From assembly GCA_038256975.1 (NCBI GenBank), contig JBBSJU010000004.1:1-60171 (forward strand): a DNA stretch of 60,171 nt, written 5' to 3'. This document shows, in pieces, positions 1,817 through 40,729 of this stretch. The stretch's first letter is position 1. Each line of letters starts with the position of its first letter. A model generated the notes under the pieces. That model made no database searches, was not told the origin of the DNA, and saw nothing but the letters and a program-made list of their open reading frames with translations. The translations under genes were made by a program, and so were the position numbers. The stretch is from Minisyncoccia bacterium. GTDB lineage: Bacteria; Patescibacteriota; Minisyncoccia; Phycocordibacterales; UBA5272.

Positions 1817-2263
1817 ATGTATCTCAATAAAGTGTATCTCATTGGTAATCTCACCCGAGATCCAGAACTGAAATCGCTTCCAACAGGAAATAAAGTAACT
1901 TCGTTTAGTATTGCTACGAATCGTGTTTGGAAAGACGCGAATGGTGCGAAGCAAGAATCAGTAGAATTTCACAATGTTGTGGTTTTTGGTCGCCAAGCAG
2001 AAACTTCAGCTCAGTACCTCAAAAAAGGTCAGCAAGTGATGGTAGAAGGAAGAATTCAAACACGAAGCTGGGATGACAAAACAACAAACGAGAAAAAATA
2101 TCGAACGGAAATTGTTGCTGAGAGTGTCCAATTTGGATCAAAGACGGGAGGAAGCTCTTCCGAAACTGGAGAAGTAAAAGGTCAAGCAATGAGTAGTGAT
2201 GGCAAACTCGACACGATAGAGTACGGAGATGAAGATGTAAACATTAATGATATCCCATTTTAA
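1817..2263 (+). CDS. ssb: Single-stranded DNA-binding protein
   Basis: MYLNKVYLIGNLTRDPELK...FHNVVVFGRQAE OB-fold signature, Gly/Ser-rich linker and the canonical acidic C-terminal tip DIPF. Confidence 0.93.
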   Translation: MYLNKVYLIGNLTRDPELKSLPTGNKVTSFSIATNRVWKDANGAKQESVEFHNVVVFGRQAETSAQYLKKGQQVMVEGRIQTRSWDDKTTNEKKYRTEIVAESVQFGSKTGGSSSETGEVKGQAMSSDGKLDTIEYGDEDVNINDIPF

Positions 2264-2267
2264 AAGT

Positions 2268-2471
2268 ATGAAAAAAGCAGATTACTTCAACGCAAACAAC
2301 ATTCAGCATATCGATTACAAAGACGTAGAGATTATTAAAAAGTTTTTGAATCCAAACGCACGTATGCTTTCACGACGGAAGTCAGGACTTACTGCAAAGA
2401 ACCAACGACTTCTCTCCATGGCGGTAAAACGAGCACGATTCATGGGACTTCTCCCGTACGTTGCGCAATAG
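2268..2471 (+). CDS. rpsR: 30S ribosomal protein S18
   Basis: IDYKDVEIIKKFLNPNARMLSRRKSGLTAKNQRLLSMAVKRARFMGLLPY is a typical S18 core. Start taken at MKKADY (ATG 2268). Confidence 0.9.
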   Translation: MKKADYFNANNIQHIDYKDVEIIKKFLNPNARMLSRRKSGLTAKNQRLLSMAVKRARFMGLLPYVAQ

Positions 2472-2569
2472 TTGGACTTCACCGTCCACTCATAAGTAGT
2501 TTTTCTTTACGGAGACCTCTCCCTACCCAAAGAAAAAATCTTATTCGTTTCCATGTGTGAGTGATACTA

Positions 2570-2596
2570 AAAATCCGTCCGCTTGGGCGGATTTTT
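2570..2596 (+). terminator. Rho-independent terminator after rpsR
   Basis: aaatccg(t)cc-gcttg-ggcggattt stem-loop followed by a T run. Confidence 0.7.
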
Positions 2597-2598
2597 GC

Positions 2599-2604
2599 TA
2601 TACT
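2599..2604 (+). promoter_or_regulatory. -10 box (TATACT) 7 nt upstream of ATG 2612; leaderless-type promoter
   Basis: tgcTATACTgtaattaATG, with no Shine-Dalgarno sequence possible in the 7-nt gap. Confidence 0.55.
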
Positions 2605-2611
2605 GTAATTA

Positions 2612-4516
2612 ATGAACCTCGATGAGAAGGTAACATATTTTGCTGAAACTGATTTTCGAAACAAGAAGACGAAGTTTGGCATAAAAAACAAAGATCGAAG
2701 TCGTCACATGTATGTGATTGGTATGACAGGTATGGGAAAATCAACCATGCTTGAAAACCTTGCCATTCAAGATATTCAAAGTGGTGAAGGTGTTGCATTT
2801 ATTGACCCGCACGGTGGAACGGCAGAAAAACTCCTTTCATACATTCCAGAGCATCGAGTACAAGACGTAGTGTATTTTGCGCCATTTGATTCAGACTATC
2901 CGATATCTTTTAATGTACTTGACGACGTTGATCCAAAACGACGACACCTTGTTGTGGGCGGTCTCATGAGTGCTTTCAAAAAGATTTGGGTTGATGCATG
3001 GTCGGCCCGCATGGAATATATTTTGCAAAATATATTGCACGCACTCCTTGAATACCCAGGGGCTACTCTTTTAGGGGTGAATAGGATGTTGTCCGATAAA
3101 GATTTTCGAAAGAAAGTTGTCGACAATGTTACCGATCCTTCGGTGAAGGCTTTTTGGGTTGAAGAATACGCAAAGTATACCGATAAATTTGCCGCTGAAG
3201 CTGCACCGGCCATTCAAAATAAAGTTGGGCAGTTTACCGGGAATCCTTTGATTCGAAATTTAGTAGGGCAACCGAAGTCGTCATTTGATATTCGTGAGCT
3301 TATGGACAACAGAAAGATTTTGATTATGAACCTTTCAAAGGGTCGTATGGGCGAAGACAACTCAAATCTCATTGGCTCAATGCTTATTACCAAAATGTAT
3401 CTTGCAGCTATGAGTCGTGCTGATTCTACTGAAAACGAAATGCGCGAACTGCCGTCATTTAACTTTTATGTAGATGAGTTTCAATCATTTGCGAGTGACT
3501 CTTTCGCAAATATTTTATCCGAAGCTCGAAAGTATAAGCTCAACCTCACGATTGCACACCAGTATGTGGAGCAGATGTCGGATGAAGTGAAGGCTGCAGT
3601 CTTTGGAAATGTGGGCAGTATGGTAGTCTTTCGAGTTGGATCAACTGATGCAGAAATATTTGAAAAAGAATTTGCACCGTATTTTATGTTGGAAGATATT
3701 GTTAGTCTGGGGCAACGACAAATATATTTACGTCTCATGATAGATGGAGTTGGCTCACAGCCATTTTCTGCAACTACTTTACCACCCATTATGCCACCAG
3801 AGGTAGCATACAGGCAGCAAGTTATTGATGCTTCTCGAATGAAATTTGCACGTAAAAAAGATGACGTTGAAAAAGAAATTCGTGATTGGCACGCTCCGGT
3901 TTTGTTTACTCAAGATGATCGTATGCGTGATATCCAAAAAGGTGAACAGGCAAGAATGGCAAAAGGCATTTCACCACGTGGAACCTTTCAATCTCAAGCG
4001 ACGTATTATCCTAAAAGTGAACAAACGGTAACTCAGACAGCGTCTCAAGTGCCCCAACAAGTAAAGAAAAATGAGTTCGCTCATCCAGTGAAAACCCAGT
4101 CGCCAAGTCAGTTTTCAAGACCAATAGCATCTCCTCAAAAACAGACAATACAAAATGTTTCTTCTCCAAACACAAGCTTGCGAGATGCTTTGCAAAAAGA
4201 AATACAGAGTGTGAAAAGTCCTGTTCAAAAGCCTGAGGAGAAAAAAGACAAAGACATTGGGAATCGAGAGGGAAGAGTATCACTGTCTTCTCTGCTTGCT
4301 TCACAGAATCAATCTAAAACTCACGTAGTAGATGCGAAAAATAAAACTGATTTAAAGGAAAGTATCAATCAAATAACTCAGAAAACTACCCCAAGGCAAC
4401 CTTTTGTTGATACGCAGAGCCAGGAAAAGAAACAAGAAACCCAAAAGAGTTTGGATTTACCGGCAAAAAAAAGTGGTGAAATTCCAGCAGATGTGTTGAA
4501 AAAGTTACTTGAGTAG
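2612..4516 (+). CDS. TraD/TrwB/VirD4-like (type IV coupling protein family) P-loop ATPase with low-complexity C-terminal tail
   Basis: Walker A GMTGMGKST. Walker B-like FNFYVDEFQSF. AHQYVEQMSDEVKAAVFGNVGSMVVFRVG core. The last ~200 aa are Q/S/K/T-rich. Confidence 0.7.
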   Translation: MNLDEKVTYFAETDFRNKKTKFGIKNKDRSRHMYVIGMTGMGKSTMLENLAIQDIQSGEGVAFIDPHGGTAEKLLSYIPEHRVQDVVYFAPFDSDYPISFNVLDDVDPKRRHLVVGGLMSAFKKIWVDAWSARMEYILQNILHALLEYPGATLLGVNRMLSDKDFRKKVVDNVTDPSVKAFWVEEYAKYTDKFAAEAAPAIQNKVGQFTGNPLIRNLVGQPKSSFDIRELMDNRKILIMNLSKGRMGEDNSNLIGSMLITKMYLAAMSRADSTENEMRELPSFNFYVDEFQSFASDSFANILSEARKYKLNLTIAHQYVEQMSDEVKAAVFGNVGSMVVFRVGSTDAEIFEKEFAPYFMLEDIVSLGQRQIYLRLMIDGVGSQPFSATTLPPIMPPEVAYRQQVIDASRMKFARKKDDVEKEIRDWHAPVLFTQDDRMRDIQKGEQARMAKGISPRGTFQSQATYYPKSEQTVTQTASQVPQQVKKNEFAHPVKTQSPSQFSRPIASPQKQTIQNVSSPNTSLRDALQKEIQSVKSPVQKPEEKKDKDIGNREGRVSLSSLLASQNQSKTHVVDAKNKTDLKESINQITQKTTPRQPFVDTQSQEKKQETQKSLDLPAKKSGEIPADVLKKLLE

Positions 4517-4543
4517 TTGTTTTCTTGATTATATAATTAACCA

Positions 4544-6058
4544 ATGAATAGGGCCGTTGCTCTTGCGTTTCTTTTATTCATTACAACGTCTTTTGTACGT
4601 GGACAGCTGGTAATTACCGAAGTAATGTATGATCCATCTGGATCTGATACGGGACGAGAATGGGTGGAAGTACAAAATACAAGCGGGGGCACGATTAATT
4701 TTACGACCTGGAAATTTTTTGAAGCAAATGTAAATCATGGTATTGAACAAATAGACGGATATGCCGCGGAATTAACAGCCAATGAATATGGTGTCGTGGT
4801 CTCTGATAAAACCAAGTTTCTCATTGATTTCCCAAGTTTTTCTGGCAAGATTTTCAAATCTTCTTTTTCACTAAGTAATACTGGAGAGGTACTTGCTTTT
4901 AAAAATGACGCTGGTGTTGTGGTGGATGAATATTTGTATGACGTTTCTCTTGGTGGTGCGGGTGACGGGAACAGTCTTCAGAAAAGAACAACTTGGACTG
5001 CAGCACTGCCAACTCCTGGAATCGCAACGGGTGGTTCGGGAGGACAAACCAACGCAACAACTACTCCATCGGGCGGAGAAACTACAGTACAGGGGACTGG
5101 CCCAGCAGGCACAGGTTTTGAAAGTACATATACTGCACCGCGACAACTTTTTGGAAGTATAATTACCCCGCAGATTGCTTTTGTAGGTGCGGATACAGTT
5201 TTACGCGCCCAAGCTTTTGTTTCTGGGGGCAAAAGCGCTCTTAATCCTTTATTTACGTGGAATTTTGGAGACGGCGCCATTGGACATGGATCAGTAGTGA
5301 CACATCAATATAAATATCCAGGAACGTATCATATAGCACTTGAAATCATGGCCTCAGTTGATACGGTGAACGCTTCTGCTTTGGAGCATCTGTCTTTAGT
5401 GGTTCTTACCCCAGACGTCTCTGTATCTACAGGGAGCGATGAGCATGGTGGAACCTACGTGCGCATTGAAAACAAGTCAAAATATCTTCTGGATATTTCA
5501 TCATGGGTTGTCCGAAAAGGAGGTATTGAAGGCGAGCAGTACATTTTCCCGAAGAATACTTTTATTGCGCCTTTTGCAGCACTGCGTATCCCTCAAGAAA
5601 TTACGCAATTTAAAAATGATGGCACTGTAAAACCAATTGTAGTTTTATTTCCCAATAAAGGAGTGGTGGCATACTATGACCCAACAAAGGTAACAACGAG
5701 CCTGGCGATAGCCACTTCTTCACCTCCACCGTTACCACTAAAGACATACATGGTGAACACCGCAGTTTCAAATAAAAAGCTCGCAACTAAGACAAGTGAT
5801 GATCACCCCTCTGTTGCTTCACGCGAAGTAGGAGTAACCTCTTCGTTGATGACCCAGATGGTCTCGAAGGAAGATGTCTCTTCAACATTTGAATCTCCTC
5901 TTATTGCAGCGGCAGAAGCATCCCACGAAGATAGGACTTCTGTGTTATGGTATATTTTACCACTCCTCGTGCTTGTTGGTACGGCAGGAATATTCTTAAG
6001 AACGAAGAAAGAAGATACTGCGGTGGACGAATATACGATTATTGATGACGGAAAATAA
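4544..6058 (+). CDS. Secreted/anchored surface protein with lamin-tail (LTD) and PKD-like domains
   Basis: Signal-like MNRAVALAFLLFITTSFVRG. LTD-like LVITEVMYDPSGSDTGREWVEVQN...LSNTGEVLAFKN. PKD-like FTWNFGDGAIGHGSVVTHQYKYPGTYHIALE. C-terminal TM VLWYILPLLVLVGTAGIFL. TATAAT at 4532-4537 lies 6 nt before the ATG. Confidence 0.7.
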   Translation: MNRAVALAFLLFITTSFVRGQLVITEVMYDPSGSDTGREWVEVQNTSGGTINFTTWKFFEANVNHGIEQIDGYAAELTANEYGVVVSDKTKFLIDFPSFSGKIFKSSFSLSNTGEVLAFKNDAGVVVDEYLYDVSLGGAGDGNSLQKRTTWTAALPTPGIATGGSGGQTNATTTPSGGETTVQGTGPAGTGFESTYTAPRQLFGSIITPQIAFVGADTVLRAQAFVSGGKSALNPLFTWNFGDGAIGHGSVVTHQYKYPGTYHIALEIMASVDTVNASALEHLSLVVLTPDVSVSTGSDEHGGTYVRIENKSKYLLDISSWVVRKGGIEGEQYIFPKNTFIAPFAALRIPQEITQFKNDGTVKPIVVLFPNKGVVAYYDPTKVTTSLAIATSSPPPLPLKTYMVNTAVSNKKLATKTSDDHPSVASREVGVTSSLMTQMVSKEDVSSTFESPLIAAAEASHEDRTSVLWYILPLLVLVGTAGIFLRTKKEDTAVDEYTIIDDGK

Positions 6059-27192: not shown

Positions 27193-27269
27193 CATTGCCA
27201 GATCGCCTGCCTGCCATGTCTGCGCACGCAGGGCAGGCAGGTCTTATGGTAGTTACATTTGCCAGATCG
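27193..27269 (+). repeat. 13/14-nt direct repeat (CATTGCCAGATCG / CATTTGCCAGATCG) bracketing a GC-rich hairpin; the second copy is the 5' end of tRNA-Gln
   Basis: Copy 1 at 27193-27205 and copy 2 at 27256-27269. Between them CCTGCCTGCC (27206-27215) pairs perfectly with GGCAGGCAGG (27232-27241). Confidence 0.6.
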
Positions 27270-27330
27270 TCTAATGGTAGGACGCATCCCTCTGAAGGAT
27301 GTTATCTTGGTTCGAGTCCAAGCCTGGCAG
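27260..27330 (+). tRNA. tRNA-Gln (anticodon CTG), no encoded CCA
   Basis: Manual cloverleaf. Acceptor TGCCAGA/CCTGGCA (U1:A72, discriminator G73). D arm GTCT-AATGGTA-GGAC. Anticodon arm CATCC-CTCTGAA-GGATG. Variable TTAT. T arm CTTGG-TTCGAGT-CCAAG. Confidence 0.9.
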
Positions 27331-27447
27331 CCGAATTTTAGTTTTTTGTAAGCGAAGCGTTCCATACCAAAAAAGCTGAAATTCGCGTCGCGGATGTCCC
27401 CTAGGGACACAAGACGTGAGTTTGGGTATTATTAGTTGTGATTAAGC

Positions 27448-27471
27448 TTGAGATAGGTTCGGAGTCCGAAG
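27448..27471 (+). repeat. 24-nt element TTGAGATAGGTTCGGAGTCCGAAG (copy 1) containing the 13-nt palindrome TTCGGAnTCCGAA
   Basis: Matches 33263-33286 at 23 of 24 positions. Ends 27 nt before ATG 27499. Confidence 0.8.
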
Positions 27472-27498
27472 AGTATCCAAAAGTTGTATAATCTTGAT

Positions 27499-28335
27499 AT
27501 GAAATCAAAAGTACTGCAAATGCTCGTTCCTGAAGGAAATCCAAACGGAATGAAAATACTTGAATTGGCCGGATGGTCTGGTAAATGTTTTGTAGCACCC
27601 CGTCAGAGTCTAAAAGAGTTAAAAGATCGATCGGAAACCAATCAACCCGGACTTTATCTCCTCTTTGGGATTGATGAGGCGTCTTCGGACGAGCTTGTGT
27701 ATATTGGTGAATCAGAAAATTTCTACAACCGAATTGCTAACCATGATTCAAACAAGGATTTTTGGAATGTTGCAGTTGTGTTTACAGGTGGTTTAAATAG
27801 AGCATTTGTTAAATATTTAGAATATAGAGCGACTACACTGGCACATGAAGCAGGCCGAATGATTGTGCAAAACAAAGTTCAGCCTCAAGAAAACACTTTA
27901 TCTGAATTCGAGAAGGTCACTGTTGAGCAATACTTTGAGAACCTTCAATTTATTTTAGTTGCCATTGGATATGAGGTATTTGATAAGGTAGCTGAGTCAC
28001 TTTCAGATTTAAAACTTTACTATCTTAAAGCCGAAGGATCAGACGCACGAGCACAACTACTTGCAGATGGGAGCTTGAATGTATTAAAAGGTTCTCTCGC
28101 AAGAATCAGAGAAACTGAAGCATTTTGGGGATGGTCACAAGCTGCACGAAAACGATTTCTAGAGGACGGAACGTTTGTTGAAAATGGAGATGGTGTGTCT
28201 TACGTTTATACAAAAGATACGCTTTTTAAAAGCCCTTCCGCTGCCGCGGCAACAACTACGGGAAGACCTATCAACGGATGGACTGCGTGGAAAGATGAGG
28301 TTGGAAACACCCTTGATGAAAATCTGAGAAAATAA
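27499..28335 (+). CDS. GIY-YIG nuclease-domain protein with DUF4357-like C-terminal domain
   Basis: GLYLLFG...LVYIGESENFYNRIANH (GIY-YIG). C-terminal LFKSPSAAAATTTGRPINGWTAWKD is DUF4357-like. TATAAT at 27487-27492 lies 6 nt before the ATG. Confidence 0.7.
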   Translation: MKSKVLQMLVPEGNPNGMKILELAGWSGKCFVAPRQSLKELKDRSETNQPGLYLLFGIDEASSDELVYIGESENFYNRIANHDSNKDFWNVAVVFTGGLNRAFVKYLEYRATTLAHEAGRMIVQNKVQPQENTLSEFEKVTVEQYFENLQFILVAIGYEVFDKVAESLSDLKLYYLKAEGSDARAQLLADGSLNVLKGSLARIRETEAFWGWSQAARKRFLEDGTFVENGDGVSYVYTKDTLFKSPSAAAATTTGRPINGWTAWKDEVGNTLDENLRK

Positions 28336-28337
28336 TC

Positions 28338-28853
28338 ATGGACTCTTTATTTTTTATACCAATACTTAGTGCTGTCCTCATTGTTTGTATTTTTTATATT
28401 CACAGACTTTTACAATTACTTAAAGATAAAAATACCAACGCCTATCTTCCGTATGTGAAGAAAGAATATTTAATGACGAATGCAGAAAGAAACTTTTTCA
28501 AAGTGTTACAAGAAGCAGCAGGGGGTAAGTATTATATAGTTCCACAGGTGCCACTTAAAAACATTGTTCAGGTAAATAAATACGAAAAACTTCAATGGAA
28601 GTATCAAAACCAAATAGATCGAAAGTGTGTTGACTTCGTACTTTTCGATAGAGAATACTTTACGCCTCAGATTGCTATTGAGCTTGATGACATTTCCCAT
28701 GAACTACCTCTAAGAGAAGATAGAGATCGTTTTGTTGATGCGATTATGCAAAAAGTCGGATTACGGATTATGCATATTAAGACTGCGCACACCTATGATT
28801 TGACGGAAGACTTTGCTAAAATTGACTCAGATCATAAAGTTGGTAAAGTGTAG
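28338..28853 (+). CDS. Membrane-anchored DUF2726 (PD-(D/E)xK-like nuclease fold) protein
   Basis: N-terminal TM FFIPILSAVLIVCIFYI. NAERNFFKVLQEA...YIVPQVPL...CVDFVLFD...IAIELDDISHE matches the DUF2726 pattern. Starts 2 nt after the upstream stop. Confidence 0.65.
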   Translation: MDSLFFIPILSAVLIVCIFYIHRLLQLLKDKNTNAYLPYVKKEYLMTNAERNFFKVLQEAAGGKYYIVPQVPLKNIVQVNKYEKLQWKYQNQIDRKCVDFVLFDREYFTPQIAIELDDISHELPLREDRDRFVDAIMQKVGLRIMHIKTAHTYDLTEDFAKIDSDHKVGKV

Positions 28854-28922
28854 GTTAGTATTTCAAAACTTTAAGAACTGGGCTTAAAGGTCATTAATCT
28901 AACCCAAACAAAAAGATGTTTT

Positions 28923-29708
28923 ATGGCTTATACAGGAACTCTACAAAAATTGGCTCAAAATCTTCAAACTACTTACGAGAATACTATTTTTTCTCAATCT
29001 GGAGATATAGGCGATACTCGTGAGAAAGAAGTTATCAAATACTTGAAAAAGGTAATGGCCCACAAATACGGATTTCAATCAGGAGAAATCTTTGACGAAA
29101 GTGACGCAAACTCAGGTCAAGTAGATGTGATTATATATGATAGTCTTTTCTCAACTATTTTTACAGATGGAAGCGAAAAGATATTCGCCCCCGTTGAGTC
29201 TACATACGGCGTTGTCTCAGTAAAGTCTAAAATGGGAATTAAGGAACTCAAGCATGCAATTGAGGGTATTAAAAAATTTAATGAGTTAAAAAGACCGATA
29301 ATAAAAGAAAACACCCTACAAGTTACACCTGATTTTGGAATAACTTTAGGTAATGGGCTTTCTATAACAGGGTCATCAGTACAAAGAAATGTAAATTGTA
29401 TTTTCGCTTTTGAAACTAGTGTTGCGGTTGAAACTCTTATTCAAGAAGTAAAAAACAGTGGTTGTGTAGATCTTTTGGTTGTTCCAGGGAAGCTCTGTAT
29501 TATGGGTAGGAATAGAAAAGAATTTGCATTAAAAGATTTTGGTGGGAAAACTCTGGAATTTGTTGGGATCCGTAATGAAAATTCTGTGGGTCTTTTCATA
29601 CTATTCTTACAAATTTATTTATCACGAAATGTTCTAGTTGCTAGAGATGTAAAAAGTTTAGCTTTAAATTTAATTCATGGAAGTGAAGTTGAATATCTCA
29701 GGAATTAG
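28923..29708 (+). CDS. PD-(D/E)xK-like (DUF6602-like) protein, possible nuclease effector
   Basis: REKEVIKYLKKVM...SGQVDVIIYD...YGVVSVKSK follows the restriction-endonuclease-fold layout, but the catalytic acid before the Lys is not obvious. Confidence 0.45.
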   Translation: MAYTGTLQKLAQNLQTTYENTIFSQSGDIGDTREKEVIKYLKKVMAHKYGFQSGEIFDESDANSGQVDVIIYDSLFSTIFTDGSEKIFAPVESTYGVVSVKSKMGIKELKHAIEGIKKFNELKRPIIKENTLQVTPDFGITLGNGLSITGSSVQRNVNCIFAFETSVAVETLIQEVKNSGCVDLLVVPGKLCIMGRNRKEFALKDFGGKTLEFVGIRNENSVGLFILFLQIYLSRNVLVARDVKSLALNLIHGSEVEYLRN

Positions 29709-29757
29709 AATAAAGATGTTAATATAAAGACAATGATTAGAGATAACTCTTTTTTAA

Positions 29758-30729
29758 ATGAATAGCAAGAACTATTTCGATTACATAGAAGAGAAACTAA
29801 ACGTACTCGCAACCAGGGTCAAATCCAGAGGTAAATTAAACATACTGGATGTACACTTACATTCAGAAAACTTTTATAGAGATTTTTTTAATAAACTCTA
29901 TAAATGGAAACTTGAAAACTTGAATAACAAACAGCAAAATATTGAGTCAATCGATTTGGTTAGTAATTTAGATAAAATCATTATTCAGGTATCTGCAACA
30001 TCTACCAAGCAAAAAATAGAGTCTGCCTTGAGTAAAGAAATAATTAAAAGTTATTCAGGGTATAGATTTAAGTTTATTTCTATAACAGAAGACGCAATTA
30101 AATTAAAGAAATTGACTTATACGAATCCTGCCGGGATAAGTTTTCTTCCGAAGGAAGATATTTATGACGTAGGCTCAATTTTGAGATATACAAATAGCTT
30201 AAACATCAATGATAAAAAAGAAATATATGAATTTTGCAAAAAAGAATTTGCTCCAGATATAGACACCCTTGCATTGGATTCAAACTTATCAAAGATAGTG
30301 AATATTTTATCAAAGGAAAATCTTGATCAAGAATATCGAGATATTCGTCTAGAACCTTTTCAAATTGAAAGGAAAATATTATATAATAATCTAAATGGTA
30401 GTGGGGAAATAATAAAAAAATATAGTATTCACTATAATCAGCTCGAGAAGATATATAATGAATTTGATTTATCTGGTGTGAATAAAAGTAATTCCGTTTT
30501 CACAACTATTTGGATGGAGTATAAGAAAAATATAGATATCAAGAAGGATGATGAGTTATTCTATTTGATAATAAACAATATTAAAGAAATAATTTTGAAA
30601 AGTAACAATTTTGAAAAGATTCCGAGCGATGAACTAGATTTATGTATATTAATCATTGTTGTGGATGCTTTTATCCGGTGTAAAATCTTCAAAAACCCTA
30701 AAGAATACAAATATGTTACTACCGGATAA
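29758..30729 (+). CDS. SMEK-like N-terminal domain protein, presumptive third component of an ABC-3C module
   Basis: HLHSENFYRDFFNKLYKWKLENLNNKQQNIESIDLVS..KIIIQVSATSTKQKIESAL matches my recollection of the SMEK domain pattern. The C-terminal ~220 aa are unassigned. Confidence 0.55.
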   Translation: MNSKNYFDYIEEKLNVLATRVKSRGKLNILDVHLHSENFYRDFFNKLYKWKLENLNNKQQNIESIDLVSNLDKIIIQVSATSTKQKIESALSKEIIKSYSGYRFKFISITEDAIKLKKLTYTNPAGISFLPKEDIYDVGSILRYTNSLNINDKKEIYEFCKKEFAPDIDTLALDSNLSKIVNILSKENLDQEYRDIRLEPFQIERKILYNNLNGSGEIIKKYSIHYNQLEKIYNEFDLSGVNKSNSVFTTIWMEYKKNIDIKKDDELFYLIINNIKEIILKSNNFEKIPSDELDLCILIIVVDAFIRCKIFKNPKEYKYVTTG

Positions 30730-30940
30730 CATCCATCCAGAAAATTCGATATACTACAATGGAGCTTTTGTATTACAGGAGTTACAAAAACAGACTAACC
30801 AAAATTTAATCGATTTATATCAAAATGTAAAACAAAAACAAAAAATGAGTTTTCCAGTTTTTGTTTTATGCTTAGATTGGCTGTTCTTATTGAGTGTTGC
30901 TGAACTAAAAGAAGATGGCAACGTAAAGTTATGTTCTTAA
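30713..30940 (+). CDS. ABC-3C middle component-like small protein (75 aa)
   Basis: MLLPDNIHPENSIYYNGAFVLQELQ...FPVFVLCLDWLFLLSVAEL. ATG 30713 overlaps the upstream gene by 17 nt, and the stop overlaps the ATPase start by 10 nt. Confidence 0.55.
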   Translation: MLLPDNIHPENSIYYNGAFVLQELQKQTNQNLIDLYQNVKQKQKMSFPVFVLCLDWLFLLSVAELKEDGNVKLCS

Positions 30941-32652
30941 AATTATTAAAAATATCATCGGGAGATAACGTAATTCGTCAGATTTCTTTTAAAAAGGGAA
31001 TTAACTTGATTGTTGACGAAACTCCAGAAACTAACAGTGAGACGACCGGAAATAATGTAGGGAAAACAACAGTTTTAAAATTAATAGATTTTTGTCTGGG
31101 GGCTGATCCGAAAGTGGTATATACCGACCCTGAGTCAAAAAGAGATGTGTATGAATTAATTAAAACCTTTTTGCTAAAAAGGGAAATATTGATTACCTTG
31201 GTTTTGAAAAGAAATTTAGAGGAGGAAGATTCTTCAGAGATTTTGATAGAAAGAAATTTTCTCTCACGTAAAAAAAGAATTCAAAGGATTAACGGTGAGA
31301 ACCTAACCGATGAAGAATTTGAACTAAAACTTTTGCAACTAATTATTCCTGAACAGGGAGCTGAAAAACCAACATTCAGACAAATTATATCTCATAACAT
31401 AAGATATAGAGATGAAAATGTAAATAACACTATAAATACATTAAATAAATATACAAGTGACGCGGAGTACGAGGCATTGTATCTGTTTTTATTCGGATGC
31501 GAATTTACTCAAGGAAACTCGAAACAGGATATTTTAGAGAAGATTAATCAGGAGCAAAACTATAAAAATAGGGTGGAAAAAAATCAGACAAGGACGGCTT
31601 ATGAGGCTGCGCTTGCTCTTATTCATTCTGAAATAACTGATTTAAAAAAAAGGAAAAAAAATCTTAATTTAAATGAAAACTTTGAAGCTGATTTAGATAA
31701 ACTCAATAGTATAAAGTATGAAATTAATAAGACAAGCTCAGAAATAAGCAAAATTTCAATCAAGAAGAGCTTAATCATTGAAGCTGAGCAAGAATTAAGT
31801 GCAAGGAAATCAGATATTGATCTTCAGCAATTGAGGCTAATCTATCAACAGGCAACAAGTCAAATTGTTAATGTGCAAAAAACTTTTGATGATTTGGTTG
31901 ATTATCACAATAGAATGATTATTGAAAAAGTTCAATTTATCAAAAAAGATTTACCGGAATTAGAAAAAGAGATAAAAAACAAGGAGTCTTATTTGAAAGT
32001 TCAATTGAATGAAGAAAAAGACATAACTCTTAAAATTTCTAAAAGCGATTCCTTTGAGGAACTTGAGGAATTGATTGTAAAGTTAAATGAAAGTTTTAGA
32101 AAAAAAGGAGAATATGAAGGTGTTATCAAGGGGTTGTTAGAGGTTGAGGAAAATATTGCAGAATATGGTAAACAAATTAAAGAGATTGAAAATCAGTTAT
32201 TCTCAACTGATTTTGAAAAAACAGTAAAAAAACAACTTAACAAATTTAATATACATTTTGCTCTTATCTCGAACCAGTTGTATGGAGAGAAATACGTCGT
32301 TAAGCACGACATAGTCTTCAATAGGAATAACCAGCGGATATATAAATTCAGTTCTTTTAATGCAAATCTAAGTTCAGGTAAGAAACAGGGAGAAATATCA
32401 TGTTTTGATATTGCTTATACAATGTTTGCAGATGAAGAAAAGATTTCATGCTTACATTTTTTACTGAATGATAAAAAAGAGTTAATGCATGATAATCAAT
32501 TGGTAAAGATTGCTGAATTTGTAAATAAAAATAATATTCAATTTGTTGCATCAATACTAAAAGATAAACTTCCTGAAGAATTAAATAAACAAGAATACTT
32601 TGCGGTTAAACTTTCCCAAACGGATAAGCTATTTAGAATAGAGAATCAGTAA
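30931..32652 (+). CDS. Coiled-coil ABC/SMC-like ATPase (DUF2326 / ABC-3C ATPase type)
   Basis: Walker A GNNVGKT (31048-31068). ~200-aa E/K/L-rich coiled-coil insert. C-terminal LSSGKKQ (signature-like) and CLHFLLND (Walker B-like). Confidence 0.7.
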   Translation: MFLKLLKISSGDNVIRQISFKKGINLIVDETPETNSETTGNNVGKTTVLKLIDFCLGADPKVVYTDPESKRDVYELIKTFLLKREILITLVLKRNLEEEDSSEILIERNFLSRKKRIQRINGENLTDEEFELKLLQLIIPEQGAEKPTFRQIISHNIRYRDENVNNTINTLNKYTSDAEYEALYLFLFGCEFTQGNSKQDILEKINQEQNYKNRVEKNQTRTAYEAALALIHSEITDLKKRKKNLNLNENFEADLDKLNSIKYEINKTSSEISKISIKKSLIIEAEQELSARKSDIDLQQLRLIYQQATSQIVNVQKTFDDLVDYHNRMIIEKVQFIKKDLPELEKEIKNKESYLKVQLNEEKDITLKISKSDSFEELEELIVKLNESFRKKGEYEGVIKGLLEVEENIAEYGKQIKEIENQLFSTDFEKTVKKQLNKFNIHFALISNQLYGEKYVVKHDIVFNRNNQRIYKFSSFNANLSSGKKQGEISCFDIAYTMFADEEKISCLHFLLNDKKELMHDNQLVKIAEFVNKNNIQFVASILKDKLPEELNKQEYFAVKLSQTDKLFRIENQ

Positions 32653-32684
32653 TTTTTAACTGAGCTCATGGTTTCTGTCTGCAT

Positions 32685-32705
32685 AGTTCCAACGTCGTCC
32701 CATGC
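32685..32705 (+). repeat. 21-nt post-stop junction motif, copy a
   Basis: AGTTCCAACGTCGTCCCATGC, starting 32 nt after the ATPase stop. Consensus AGTTYCRAYNTCGTCCCAGAC. Confidence 0.7.
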
Positions 32706-32790
32706 TCTCAGCACTTGATTTTCACATCATTTATCAAAGTAAAACTTATACCTGTCAGGTAATCTCGAATTTCTGTATAATTATCCTAAT

Positions 32791-33219
32791 ATGTTGCCAG
32801 ACGAAAACTCAAAAAAATTTGTTGCGGTATTAAACAAGAAAGTCGAAACCGGAAAGTTAATGAACGCTCTGGGTCACATGAGTGCAGGACTTTCGGGTGG
32901 CTTCGGAAAGGGAGAAGAAATGAATTTTTTGGAATATCTTGATAAAGATGGAGGGATTCATCCAAAGATATCTCATTTTCCTTTTATAATATTAAAAGCA
33001 GAAAATTCCAATCAGATCAGAAAAATTAGAAATGAGGCTATGCAGAGAAATATACTATTCACTGATTTTACAAGCACGATGACTGTCGGGACCTCCGCAG
33101 ATCAATTAGAGAGAACAAAGAGTACGCTTGAAGCTGAATTGGAATATTGGGGGATATGCATGTTTGGAAATGCAGCAGAGCTTAAGGAATTTACAGGAAA
33201 GTTATCACTGTTCAATTAA
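32791..33219 (+). CDS. DUF2000-like protein (PTH2-like fold family)
   Basis: KFVAVLNKKVETGKLMNALGHMSAGL...PFIILKA pattern at ~140 aa. TATAAT at 32776-32781. Confidence 0.5.
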   Translation: MLPDENSKKFVAVLNKKVETGKLMNALGHMSAGLSGGFGKGEEMNFLEYLDKDGGIHPKISHFPFIILKAENSNQIRKIRNEAMQRNILFTDFTSTMTVGTSADQLERTKSTLEAELEYWGICMFGNAAELKEFTGKLSLFN

Positions 33220-33230
33220 TATAATAGTTT

Positions 33231-33251
33231 GGTTCGAATAACGTCCCAGAC
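33231..33251 (+). repeat. 21-nt post-stop junction motif, copy b
   Basis: GGTTCGAATAACGTCCCAGAC, starting 11 nt after the DUF2000 stop. Confidence 0.7.
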
Positions 33252-33262
33252 GGCCAGCCAGT

Positions 33263-33286
33263 TTGAGATAGGTTCGGATTCCGAAG
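33263..33286 (+). repeat. 24-nt element TTGAGATAGGTTCGGATTCCGAAG (copy 2)
   Basis: Matches 27448-27471 at 23 of 24 positions. Ends 19 nt before ATG 33306. Its half-site GATTCCGAAG recurs at 35322-35331. Confidence 0.8.
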
Positions 33287-33305
33287 TGTAATATAATTCA
33301 TAAAC

Positions 33306-35339
33306 ATGGATCCGCTAGATTTGGAAAGGAAAGATTTTGGAAAAGAATTTGAAGAAGAAGTTAAGTTTTTTCTTGAGGAAAAACTCAGATTTTCTGATGT
33401 GAGAGGAGGTCAAGATTTTCACATTGCTCCTCCAGGACAAAAAAATCAAATAGATGCTTGTGGTCGTTACAACGATATTCTTTTTGTGTTTGAGTGTAAA
33501 GCTTCAGGAAGAAGAACTAAGAAAAATTTACGTCAAGATATTTTAGCAACAAAAGAAAGGGCAAGAATGGTACTACGATCATATAAATACATCCCCGAAT
33601 ATGCTAATTGTAATTATGTAAAATTTGTTTTTATAACTAAAAAAATTGAAATACCTGATACTGAAAAAGATTTACTTAATAAGGATACTGAGCCACATTT
33701 TTGGTATGCAGATGAAAATATGTTGGAGTATTATAGTGATCTTCATGAAAAGGTTGGAGAGTATGCAACGTATAATTTTTTAGCAGATTTTGGAATTAGA
33801 CCTTCAGAAGATGAGGTGCTCAAGGTGGCTGCGGTTAAAACTAAAATTGGTAACTATGATACATATAGTTTTTATGCTCCACCTAAGCAATTATTAAAAT
33901 TTTCTTATGTTGCAAGACGCAGATCTTTAAACGAGAATTTTTATCAAAGGATGTTAGATAAAAATAGAATAAAAAACATTCAAAATTTTATAGACGCAGG
34001 TGGAATATTCCCGACAAATGTCATAATTTCTTTAAAACATGGAGACAAGGAATTTGTAAAGAATCATGATCTGACTGGTTCTGAGGTTGGTGTACTAACT
34101 ATTAAAAATAGTTACAGTGCTTGTTGGATCATTGATGGTCAACATAGACTATACTCCCATGCTAAATCAAAATCAGAAAATCTTATTCCTTGTATTGCTT
34201 TTGACAATATTGGTATTGAGGATGAAAGACGTTTTTTCCTTGAAATAAACAGGGAGCAGAAACCAATTCAACCAGATTTAATTTGGGACCTTGAGGGATT
34301 ATCAAGTCCTGATTCATTTAAGGGAATCATTTCAAATGTTGTTCGAACTCTTAATAATCGAGAACCTTTTCTCGATAAAGTTTATATTCCAGTAAAAGGA
34401 TCACGCACAAACAAACTTGTTAATATGGCAGCTTTCTGTAACGGTATTGTTAATTCACAAATCACTAAACAAAACCCTCCTAGTGTTATAGGAATGCAAA
34501 ACCCCTTATTTACAGAGGTCACAAGAACAATAACTAACCGAACAGCTTCTTCTTTAGAGAGATTTTTCCTTAGTTTGAAAGAGGTTTTAAATGAGGATCA
34601 AATAGATTTTGTGTTTGGGAATGCTGGTATCCCTATAATGTTGTATATTTTTGAGCCAATTTTGGCTCATATTGGTCGAATACCTGCTTTTGGTGATTTA
34701 AGCCCGTATACAAAATTAATAGGAGAATTTTTTAACCAAAATTACTCCACATATGATGATCTTCGAAAACTAAGATCAGAAACTAATAGTGAAGGTGCTC
34801 GTAAGTCAATTGCTAGACAAATAGGCTTGTATATTCGCAAGGGAGTAAGAGATCGTCTGTTTTGGCCAAAAATGGAACAAGATGAATTTGTGTCAGAAAT
34901 TATTTCGATGGAAAGAGGTATCGCCTCCGTTATTGCTGAAAAGTTAAGCGAAGTTACAGTTGGTTGGGAAAAACAAAGAGTACCACAACCAATATATGCT
35001 GTAGCAAAGAAAAGGATGGACCAAGACGGGACTGTCTTCCATGAAAACTTTTCTCTTGGAGACGAAATACAGATTATTACAAGGGATGACAACTGGAAAG
35101 AAGTTTTTCAAGATTTTTTTATAACAAAGACAGGATTTAAGGATCAAAGCGAATTAAAGTTAGCATTCAGATATTTAGCTGACGTTCGTAATCCTACTTC
35201 ACACGGTAAATCAGTTATTACAGATAAAGATGTTTTAGTACAAGCTGAAATTTATCTAGAAAAATTTAGAAAAATGATACCTATTATAGATGATATTGAC
35301 CAAGAAGTAGGTCTAAATAATGATTCCGAAGAGCATTAA
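33306..35339 (+). CDS. Three-domain fusion: PD-(D/E)xK REase-like N-domain, DGQHR (DndB-like ParB/Srx fold) domain, and C-terminal HEPN (Swt1-like)
   Basis: IDACG...LFVFECKAS (D50, E63, K65; 33453-33500). WIIDGQHRLYSH with DGQHR encoded at 34134-34148. DVRNPTSHG, with the Rx4H HEPN motif at 35187-35204. Confidence 0.75.
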   Translation: MDPLDLERKDFGKEFEEEVKFFLEEKLRFSDVRGGQDFHIAPPGQKNQIDACGRYNDILFVFECKASGRRTKKNLRQDILATKERARMVLRSYKYIPEYANCNYVKFVFITKKIEIPDTEKDLLNKDTEPHFWYADENMLEYYSDLHEKVGEYATYNFLADFGIRPSEDEVLKVAAVKTKIGNYDTYSFYAPPKQLLKFSYVARRRSLNENFYQRMLDKNRIKNIQNFIDAGGIFPTNVIISLKHGDKEFVKNHDLTGSEVGVLTIKNSYSACWIIDGQHRLYSHAKSKSENLIPCIAFDNIGIEDERRFFLEINREQKPIQPDLIWDLEGLSSPDSFKGIISNVVRTLNNREPFLDKVYIPVKGSRTNKLVNMAAFCNGIVNSQITKQNPPSVIGMQNPLFTEVTRTITNRTASSLERFFLSLKEVLNEDQIDFVFGNAGIPIMLYIFEPILAHIGRIPAFGDLSPYTKLIGEFFNQNYSTYDDLRKLRSETNSEGARKSIARQIGLYIRKGVRDRLFWPKMEQDEFVSEIISMERGIASVIAEKLSEVTVGWEKQRVPQPIYAVAKKRMDQDGTVFHENFSLGDEIQIITRDDNWKEVFQDFFITKTGFKDQSELKLAFRYLADVRNPTSHGKSVITDKDVLVQAEIYLEKFRKMIPIIDDIDQEVGLNNDSEEH

Positions 35340-36117: not shown

Positions 36118-36167
36118 AACTAGCACGGTGACTAAATAAAACTTAGTTTTTCTTGTATTATGTCTAC

Positions 36168-36737
36168 ATGAATGAGCCAGCAGACCTAGTTTACATTGAT
36201 GACTATGATTTATTAGGTAGTAATTTTTATTGGCATAAGTATGAAGCTAAAGGATTAACGAAAGAAGATATACTCTCTGTTGGATTAACGAGCGATCGGG
36301 TACAAATACATAAAGATATCTTACAACCGCTACTTACAGTGAATGCTGAGTTTCAAAGGAAAGGATACCGGTTATACATTAAAGAGGGATATCGTTCGAA
36401 AGCTCTTTACGAAATGATTTACAAACGGCGTGTTACAAAGTTTGGTAAGGAAGAAACCGATCGTCTTTTAAATATGGAAGGGATGCCTCACGCGGAAGGA
36501 AAATCAGTGGATGTGGCCTTATGGAGTCTACGAGAGAATAAGGAAATTTATCTGCGCCAAGGAGAAGACGGGGTAGATGCGCTTTTTGTTGATTTCTATA
36601 AAGGAAAAGAGGATGAGCAAAGCAAAAGATATCAAGAGCTACAAGAATGGATTATTAATATAATGCAAGAACAAGGATTTCGACTGGGTACTAAACGGGA
36701 ATACTTTCATTTCGATTATAAGCCGAATGAGGTTTGA
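36168..36737 (+). CDS. Peptidase M15 family, VanX-like D-Ala-D-Ala dipeptidase (paralogue 1)
   Basis: YIKEGYRSK, MPHAEGKSVDV (H and D zinc ligands) and EYFHFDY (distal His). TATTAT at 36156-36161 lies 6 nt before ATG 36168. Confidence 0.7.
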   Translation: MNEPADLVYIDDYDLLGSNFYWHKYEAKGLTKEDILSVGLTSDRVQIHKDILQPLLTVNAEFQRKGYRLYIKEGYRSKALYEMIYKRRVTKFGKEETDRLLNMEGMPHAEGKSVDVALWSLRENKEIYLRQGEDGVDALFVDFYKGKEDEQSKRYQELQEWIINIMQEQGFRLGTKREYFHFDYKPNEV

Positions 36738-39552: not shown

Positions 39553-39607
39553 TTTTTACAAAATGAAAACACGCCTACGAAAAGCATGTTTTCAGTAAGC
39601 GTGTGTA
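39553..39607 (-). repeat. 55-nt exact repeat (copy 1), likely the intrinsic terminator/3' UTR of the minus-strand small membrane-protein gene
   Basis: tttttacaaaatgaaaacacgcctacgaaaagcatgttttcagtaagcgtgtgta is identical to 40675-40729. On the minus strand ACACGC...GCGTGT is followed by TTTTCATTTTGTAAAAA. Confidence 0.75.
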
Positions 39608-39997: not shown

Positions 39998-40061
39998 TTG
40001 TAGCTATTAACGGCTAGTCTAGTGGTCAGATAAAATTCATTTTTTCTTGTATCATGTCTAT

Positions 40062-40640
40062 ATGAATGAGCCAACAGATCTAGTTTATATCGATGACTAT
40101 AATTTATTAGGTAGTAATTTTTATTGGCATAAATATGAAACTCACGGACTCACGAAAGAAGATATTTTAGGTGCTGGTTTGGTAGACGATAGAGTTCAGG
40201 TGAGCAAACAGATTATTGAGCCTCTTATTGCGGCAGACAATGAATTACAGAAAAAAGGATGGCGGCTTTATATTAAAGAAGGGTATCGTTCAAAAGATCT
40301 TTACAAGGTAGTCTATGAGAAAAGAATTGCTAAATATGGAAAAGAAGTCACAGATACTATATTAAACATAGATACGATGCCACATTCTGAAGGTTTGTCT
40401 GTCGATATTTCAATTTGGGACACTAAGACAGATAAAGAGATATATATGCGTAAAGGGAGTGATGGTGTGCCAGCTTTCTTTACCCATTTCTATCGTGATA
40501 AAAGTGATGAGGAATCAAAAAGTTATCAAGAACTTCAAGATTATATAGCCAAATTAATGATGAAATATGGTTTCCGTTTTGCGTCGAAAAAGGAATACTT
40601 TCATTTTGATTATCGCCCTAGCTTACCTCCCAATTATTAG
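40062..40640 (+). CDS. Peptidase M15 family, VanX-like D-Ala-D-Ala dipeptidase (paralogue 2)
   Basis: About 60% aa identity by eye to 36168..36737. YIKEGYRSK, MPHSEGLSVDI, EYFHFDY. The promoter and first ~100 nt are nearly identical to paralogue 1. Confidence 0.7.
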   Translation: MNEPTDLVYIDDYNLLGSNFYWHKYETHGLTKEDILGAGLVDDRVQVSKQIIEPLIAADNELQKKGWRLYIKEGYRSKDLYKVVYEKRIAKYGKEVTDTILNIDTMPHSEGLSVDISIWDTKTDKEIYMRKGSDGVPAFFTHFYRDKSDEESKSYQELQDYIAKLMMKYGFRFASKKEYFHFDYRPSLPPNY

Positions 40641-40674: not shown

Positions 40675-40729
40675 TTTTTACAAAATGAAAACACGCCTAC
40701 GAAAAGCATGTTTTCAGTAAGCGTGTGTA
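40675..40729 (-). repeat. 55-nt exact repeat (copy 2), terminator/3' UTR of the second small membrane-protein gene
   Basis: Identical to 39553-39607. Confidence 0.75.

Follow-up and report, generated by a model that had tools for sequence, protein, structure and literature searches.

A probable short Lamassu system with a SMEK-type effector in a low-GC defence block of a Minisyncoccia bacterium

The systems called ABC-3C (for ABC-three-component), type II Lamassu and DdmABC are one family, and the DdmA and DdmB proteins have domains of two sister Pfam families, CTD7 and MC3 (C-terminal domain 7 and middle component 3). Lamassu acts against phages and plasmids by abortive infection, which needs the Walker A motif of the ATPase LmuB, the effector and lmuC. 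Published work, which includes cryo-electron microscopy (cryo-EM) structures, describes an LmuA1B2C1 complex that binds the ends of double-stranded DNA and associates with phage replication origins, and LmuA released from it tetramerises via its C-terminal domain (CTD) to form an active nuclease site. In the 2025 PNAS survey of Lamassu, SMEK is an effector found only in the short Lamassu, in which LmuB has about 600 amino acids (aa) with zero to two zinc hooks and the CTDs of LmuA are bundles of five to six helices (PMC12663957). Here we describe a three-gene operon at 29758-32652 on the forward strand of a 60,171-nucleotide (nt) stretch from a Minisyncoccia bacterium of the Patescibacteriota (assembly GCA_038256975.1, contig JBBSJU010000004.1, positions 1 to 60,171; hereafter the window), which is very likely a short Lamassu (ABC-3C, type II) with all its parts, directed against phages and plasmids and belonging to the SMEK-effector subtype. 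It fits the short-Lamassu description because it combines a 573-aa LmuB, no zinc hook, a six-helix CTD and a SMEK effector.

The operon is read in the order A-C-B. Its first gene (29758-30729, +) encodes a 323-aa LmuA-type effector with SMEK_N and ABC-3C CTD10 domains, the second (30713-30940, +) an LmuC-type middle component of the MC6 family, 75 aa when counted from its ATG (the mechanical open reading frame, ORF, begins at TTG 30656), and the third (30931-32652, +) a 573-aa LmuB-type, SMC/Rad50-like ABC ATPase of the DUF2326/YydD family and the short class. lmuA and lmuC overlap by 17 nt (ATGTTACTACCGGATAA), lmuC and lmuB by 10 nt (ATGTTCTTAA). An earlier note, made by a model from the letters alone, had listed these genes and a fourth directly upstream as plus-strand ORFs, given the overlaps as 17 and 10 nt and called the trio an ABC-3C-type module. 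All four ORFs lie where it placed them, both overlaps are real when read directly from the sequence, and the ABC-3C call agrees with hidden Markov model (HMM) matches of the three proteins to SMEK_N plus CTD10, MC6 and DUF2326 as well as with gene order in other genomes. The families PF21941, NF033859, PF20293 and PF10088 all score above their curated cut-offs, as does PF20247 for the upstream gene. The same note held that no mechanism, trigger or phage phenotype was on record for the class; this is out of date, since phenotypes, a DNA-end trigger and cryo-EM structures are published for Lamassu/DdmABC.

We scanned one genome per species, which gave 287 loci encoding a relative, and kept the best 80, a sample that includes Bacteroidota, Pseudomonadota, Bacillota, Patescibacteria, Methanosarcinales, Altarchaeum and others. 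The genes for the SMEK-CTD10 protein, MC6 and the DUF2326 ATPase occur in this order in all 80 loci, bacterial and archaeal, so that the trio is syntenic in every one of these other genomes and the MC6 gene always sits between effector and ATPase. Identity to the window proteins is 48-58% for LmuA, 50-80% for LmuC and 55-72% for LmuB, and the best metagenomic matches reach 64% for LmuA and 77% for LmuB. The overlaps between the genes are not due to chance because they are conserved among the related genomes: of the 78 loci that could be scored, 77 have a 10-nt overlap of MC6 and ATPase, and that of SMEK and MC6 is 14 nt at 64 loci and 17 nt at 13. The ORFs directly upstream of the trio (n = 74) are heterogeneous in size, strand and family, and the upstream neighbours include helix-turn-helix (HTH) proteins, restriction-modification (R-M) enzymes, integrases and housekeeping genes.

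The closest described counterpart that we found is the trio on plasmid pCLJ (270 kb) of Clostridium botulinum Ba4 str. 657, at 83081-86008 and flanked by TnpB/IS200-IS605 elements. RefSeq names its products "ABC-three component system protein", "ABC-three component system middle component 6" and "DUF2326 domain-containing protein". It shares with the window the SMEK_N plus CTD10, MC6 and DUF2326 families, the order A-C-B, an LmuB of about 570-580 aa with no zinc hook and overlaps of 17 and 10 nt, and its ATPase is 61% identical. We see no structural difference between the two; the window trio is a divergent ortholog, adjoining a tRNA-Gln gene, of an already catalogued Lamassu subtype. Divergent pairs of MC6 and DUF2326 genes were also seen on a Collinsella plasmid (2336-4725) and on C. 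botulinum pRSJ19_2 (2058-4659), where short "hypothetical" proteins, 150 aa and 220 aa long, come before them in place of a full effector-CTD protein; these pairs may belong to the clade of short Lamassu that the survey mentions as effector-less (PMC12663957).

Among matches whose source is named, those closest to the ATPase come from metagenome-assembled genomes (MAGs) of Patescibacteria, namely Minisyncoccales (71%) and Doudnabacteria (70%), and homologues of the SMEK protein occur in a Pacebacteria MAG (59%) and in a further MAG of the Patescibacteria group. The view that a defence module of this size would be unusual in a reduced genome like those of the candidate phyla radiation is therefore not upheld, since close homologues occur in such MAGs.

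The effector is a two-domain protein. Its N-terminal domain (residues 9-144; 29782-30189, +) matches SMEK_N in Pfam (PF21941, E 9.9e-38), the protein matches NCBIfam NF033859 (E 8.8e-32), the SMEK region matches the PADLOC model Aga_REase (E 3.9e-21), and the predicted fold is Mrr-like, of the PD-(D/E)xK type. A profile of 30 SMEK-CTD10 homologues finds PDB entry 26bh at E 1.3e-17, the title of which reads "the Mrr domain from Kordia jejudonensis Mrr-APAZ pAgo". Six polar residues are invariant across the 30 homologues (E37, D66, Q77, S79, T81 and K86), and all six align with the Kordia domain, in which S79 is replaced by Thr, so that the two share the pattern E...D...Q-x-[S/T]-x-T...K. Both domains are effector modules under a separate sensor platform: in Kordia this is APAZ plus a short prokaryotic Argonaute (pAgo) with nucleic-acid guides, whereas here it is CTD10 with LmuC and LmuB. 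SMEK-APAZ with a short pAgo is reported to be a nuclease; a literature search on "Mrr-APAZ" returned nothing, and the annotated part of the window (24.9-44 kb) showed no gene for Argonaute or APAZ.

The C-terminal part of LmuA (residues 175-312; 30280-30693, +) matches CTD10 (PF20275, E 3.8e-25), a helical bundle predicted to serve as adaptor to LmuB/LmuC and as oligomerisation domain. The N-terminal SMEK domain, in turn, is predicted to be the Mrr-like nuclease-type effector. The earlier note had found the C-terminal 220 aa or so to match nothing recognisable and had made them the effector or sensor; instead they contain CTD10, and the roles are the other way round, the SMEK N-terminus with its homology to the solved pAgo-associated Mrr domain being the effector. 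More than 2000 LmuA homologues of about 322 aa in the databases share both domains.

In an AlphaFold2 (AF2) model of LmuA, the N-terminal part forms an alpha/beta core (helices 3-24, 36-48 and 84-91; strands 67-69, 74-79 and 103-108), and six helices are predicted between residues 170 and 307. The top Foldseek match of this model, and the sole informative one for the whole chain, is YydB in the YydD-YydB integrative model (9a6c_B, probability 0.99, E 0.45); the solved LmuA 9nxx_B ranks only 33rd (E 7.4), and the Kordia structure 26bh is absent among the matches of this whole-chain search. YydB is the closest for the effector's C-terminal part, with only 153 columns of its 481 residues in Bacillus subtilis aligned with the model. 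The B. subtilis protein presumably carries a metallophosphoesterase-type effector in place of SMEK. The likeness to the YydB/YydC/YydD system extends to the ATPase, whose homologues are named "YydD (DUF2326 family)" by JGI, and sequence identity in these structural alignments is only about 15%.

The third protein matches DUF2326 in Pfam (PF10088, E 9.6e-21) and, among PADLOC models, PDC-M68B (E 1.8e-31) and, weakly, LmuB (E 4.8e-9, 34 bits); its homologues in the databases number more than 5800. Its AF2 model has a split head, with an N-terminal beta-sheet part and a C-terminal part separated by a coiled-coil arm (about residues 195-451; 31513-32283, +) that consists of helices 195-218, 221-243, 251-290, 296-311, 319-370, 375-423 and 426-451. 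A helical insert had been noted before and is present, at about 255 aa somewhat longer than the 200 or so first given. The best PDB match of the model is B. subtilis YydD (9a6c_A, E 3.2e-16), followed by Salmonella LmuB (9hqx_B, E 5.8e-9, and 9hqu; the Salmonella LmuB matches range from 5.8e-9 to 1.1e-7), then by the LmuAB-DNA complex (9ux7_A), and after it by Smc, Rad50, JetC and SbcC. Thus, the fold bears out the earlier description of the ATPase as SMC/Rad50-like. None of 32 ATPase homologues has a CxxC zinc hook.

The nucleotide-binding motifs first read by eye were all found. In Walker A (GNNVGKT, residues 40-46 with K45; 31048-31068, +), N41, V43, G44, K45, T46 and the following T47 are invariant, even across DUF2326 proteins that are 22-33% identical. 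The ABC signature-like motif LSSGKKQ (residues 480-486; 32368-32388, +) has S482, G483, K485 and Q486 invariant in the 32 close homologues. The Walker B region CLHFLLNDKKE (residues 507-517; 32449-32481, +), of which CLHFLLND (507-514) had been picked out earlier, was placed with a divergent DUF2326 alignment (22-33% identity) that keeps xNxVGKTT, R150-Q151, G483, D514 and E517. In this alignment the invariant R150-Q151 pair is a probable Q-loop, and the Walker B consensus is F-[LVI]-[LIV]-[NH]-D-[KV]-x-E with D514 and E517 invariant. We infer that D514 is the Walker B aspartate, its register being set by the alignment and by D521 at +7, the position of the D-loop. It is followed by K515 and not by Glu, and the invariant Glu stands at +3 (E517). 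A DUF2326 Walker B that has no Glu directly after the Asp may hydrolyse ATP slowly or in an altered manner.

The descent of LmuB from SbcC/Rad50 (PMC12663957) speaks for a non-immune reading, in which the trio would be a housekeeping or mobile-element function such as SbcCD-like DNA repair or a module for stabilisation of, or addiction to, an integrated element. Trios of this kind also travel on plasmids beside TnpB elements, and the window trio lies in an apparently acquired block adjoining a tRNA gene. However, the trio has no phosphoesterase partner of the Mre11/SbcD type, its relatives are patchily distributed, have been transferred across phyla and domains and have variable neighbours that are often R-M, HTH or integrase genes, and the characterised members of the family are all defence systems. 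We consider such a non-immune role very unlikely.

The characterised members closest in architecture are Vibrio cholerae DdmABC (Lamassu Vc-Cap4) and Salmonella enterica LmuACB (PDB 9NY5, 9NYG, 9NXX, 9HQU and 9HQX). With these the window trio has in common the A-C-B operon, an effector of the nuclease type at the N terminus of LmuA followed by a helical ABC-3C CTD, a small LmuC and a short, Rad50-like LmuB that lacks a zinc hook and whose fold matches theirs (Foldseek E about 1e-8). By analogy with the two systems, the LmuB dimer and LmuC would sequester CTD10 in the uninfected cell and so keep one LmuA inactive. LmuB and LmuC would then bind DNA ends or replication-associated structures of a phage or plasmid, ATP binding or hydrolysis would release LmuA, and free LmuA would oligomerise via CTD10. 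The SMEK domains joined in this way would become an active nuclease that degrades DNA indiscriminately, resulting in abortive infection. The translationally coupled overlaps fit co-production of the three subunits.

Several observations weigh against placing the trio in short Lamassu, or against transferring this scheme to it. At the level of sequence, the ATPase has no meaningful match in the PDB, whether searched as a single protein, as a 32-sequence profile or by its C-terminal head, and no solved LmuB is among the hits; because of this, the link to LmuB rests on the 34-bit PADLOC match and on the fold. The two AF2 models are of moderate quality, with a predicted local distance difference test score (pLDDT) of 77 for LmuA and 73 for LmuB and a predicted template-modelling score (pTM) of about 0.5 for each. 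The effector is SMEK in place of the Cap4 of the Vibrio and Salmonella systems, and its CTD is CTD10 where the solved Cap4 systems have CTD7 or CTD12. The SMEK motif reads D...Q-x-S...K and not the canonical D...(D/E)-x-K, so that its nuclease chemistry is to be taken as putative. LmuB is of the DUF2326/YydD type with a Walker B of D-K-x-E: its Asp is followed by Lys (Val in some DUF2326 proteins), a slight departure from the Q/S/T/E of the published short-LmuB consensus hhhhD[Q/S/T/E], which is descriptive and not a defining criterion (PMC12663957). LmuC, matching MC6 over nearly its whole length (PF20293, E 6.5e-29, residues 3-74), is only 75 aa long, whereas the solved systems have a larger LmuC; MC3 has at least 149 residues, given the reported K149 mutant of Vibrio LmuC (PMC12663957). 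With so small an LmuC, DNA contacts and stoichiometry could differ from those of the solved systems. Moreover, in the literature searched we found no experiment on a SMEK-type Lamassu, and a scan of 27.3-35.6 kb for promoters and terminators gave counts equal to chance.

Taken furthest, these differences describe a Lamassu-like complex that takes another route than the Cap4 paradigm. The SMEK/CTD10-MC6-DUF2326 branch could differ in this way because of its Q-x-S with a downstream Lys, its 75-aa LmuC and its Walker B without an adjacent Glu: the complex might serve as a binding switch with slow or no ATP hydrolysis, LmuC, roughly half as large as the Vibrio protein, might be too small for DNA contact, and SMEK might be a DNA-binding, sensing or non-DNase module, or might cleave its target on the complex rather than collaterally, under a different trigger or activation. 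SMEK-APAZ/pAgo is reported to cleave its targets by guidance and not collaterally. Set against this are the invariant E37, D66, Q77, S79 and K86, which are common to the Kordia domain that its depositors call an Mrr nuclease, the six-helix CTD, which is like other short LmuA CTDs, and the conservation of interfaces and DNA binding reported between two distant short Lamassu, one with Cap4 and one with a lipase (PMC12663957). We therefore regard such a different route as unlikely, and the assignment to short Lamassu of the SMEK type is retained with good confidence. It draws on the membership of the three proteins in their families, the conserved operon, the ATPase fold, the intact nucleotide-binding residues, the homology of SMEK to a solved Mrr-like domain and the conservation of its candidate active-site residues.

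The gene directly upstream of the operon (28923-29708, +; 261 aa) had been put forward as a possible fourth component, and in such a four-gene system its PD-(D/E)xK/NucC-like protein would be an extra effector of the trio. It lies on the same strand, 49 nt before the SMEK gene and in the same low-GC block, and its product is nuclease-like by HMM, with matches to DUF6602 (PF20247, E 1.4e-20), to a CRISPR-associated PD_DExK model (7e-27) and to a NucC-type effector model (6e-20), the latter two in PADLOC. Its C-terminal half (about residues 125-261) has no family match, and its 38 homologues are 213-271 aa long. The distribution of the gene, however, is not that of the trio: tblastn detects a DUF6602 homologue within 8 kb on either side of the trio in none of the 80 loci, DUF6602 does not recur among the families of the 74 ORFs directly upstream, and it is absent beside the two closest Patescibacteria-type trios (one in a Doudnabacteria MAG) and on pCLJ. 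Its orthologues (59-67% identical) occur without Lamassu genes in four of four contexts, one inside a type I R-M system with hsdS and hsdR on either side, two by serine recombinases and methyltransferases and one by DUF4145, and a single-gene DUF6602 system, "Damona", is reported to defend alone. A four-gene system thus appears highly improbable, and DUF6602 was rejected on synteny as a fourth component of the Lamassu. The gene resembles "Damona" and is an independent, stand-alone nuclease-type gene next to the three-gene operon.

Base composition sets the locus apart. The segment 28923-32652 has a GC content of 29.8% and the trio one of 28.9%, compared to 39.4% for the whole window; it is the window's lowest-GC stretch of 3.7 kb, and 11 of its 62 lines of 60 nt have a GC of 22% or less. 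An AT-rich block had been noticed by eye, which is right for the block, and the flanks are at 40-42% and not at the 45% or so first estimated. The genes upstream of the block form a locus for polysaccharide biosynthesis and encode GT4 glycosyltransferases, a flippase and a Wzy-type protein that has TPR repeats. Directly between this locus and the low-GC block, which spans 27.4-39 kb, is a tRNA-Gln(CTG) gene (27260-27332, +). A position directly after a tRNA gene is classic for an acquired island. The defence-type genes that follow, at 27484-35339, are in order PDC-S14 (GIY-YIG plus DUF4357), DUF2726, DUF6602, the Lamassu trio, DUF2000 and NERD-DGQHR, after which come metabolic genes. A low-GC block adjoining tRNA-Gln fits horizontal acquisition. 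It does not qualify as an integrated element with defined ends: the 3' end of tRNA-Gln has no second copy in the window, and inspection of the ORFs from 24.9 to 44 kb turned up no integrase.

The other members of the block are of several kinds. The GIY-YIG plus DUF4357 gene (27484-28335, +) matches the PADLOC candidate PDC-S14 (2.2e-80), and translation may in fact begin at the ATG at 27499. The DUF2726 gene (28338-28853, +) follows this gene after three nt; its product is predicted to have a hydrophobic segment at the N terminus and weakly resembles DUF559 and REase_MTES_1575. The Lamassu operon and the DGQHR gene are separated by a gene for a 142-aa DUF2000 protein (32791-33219, +; 8.7e-35), a family for which we know of no defence role. 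The last, a 677-aa NERD-DGQHR protein (33306-35339, +), has a weak N-terminal NERD domain and a DndB/DpdB-like DGQHR domain (TIGR03187, 1.9e-34); its scores fall far short of the equivalog cut-offs of both DndB and DpdB, and the annotated part of the window shows no partner genes of the dnd or dpd kind. It stands alone as a DGQHR protein among genes of defence type.

The first and last of these genes are each preceded by a copy of a 31-nt direct repeat, AGCTTGAGATAGGTTCGGAGTCCGAAGAGTA, at 27445-27475 and 33260-33290 (+). The two copies are 90% identical, where chance predicts no such repeat; they end 8-15 nt before the starts of the PDC-S14 and NERD-DGQHR genes and bracket 27476-33259. The repeat contains the palindrome TTCGGAnTCCGAA, but the hairpin has no significant stability. 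An operator or promoter element common to both genes is one possible role, the boundary of a cassette another; the repeat is absent from all 91 other loci examined.

Beyond the block, two paralogous VanY-like genes of the D-Ala-D-Ala carboxypeptidase family (36153-36737 and 40047-40640, +) are separated by about 3.9 kb and share 73% of their DNA sequence across 296 nt, and a perfect 55-nt direct repeat is found at 39553-39607 and 40675-40729. The pair and the repeat suggest a local duplication.

The trio is a recognisable and probably functional Lamassu in a Patescibacteria-type genome, where it is part of a small low-GC defence block after a tRNA gene, and its value is mainly one of annotation. 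ABC-3C and Lamassu denote the same family, and the comparative-genomics label taken alone can wrongly make a locus look unexplored. Older versions of defence finders may miss the SMEK subtype, because in the 2023 PADLOC library only the ATPase of the trio matched Lamassu-related models. The remaining interest lies in the SMEK/MC6/DUF2326 branch: the SMEK subtype is common, with thousands of metagenomic homologues, and the compact 2.9-kb operon is a reasonable candidate for characterising that branch.

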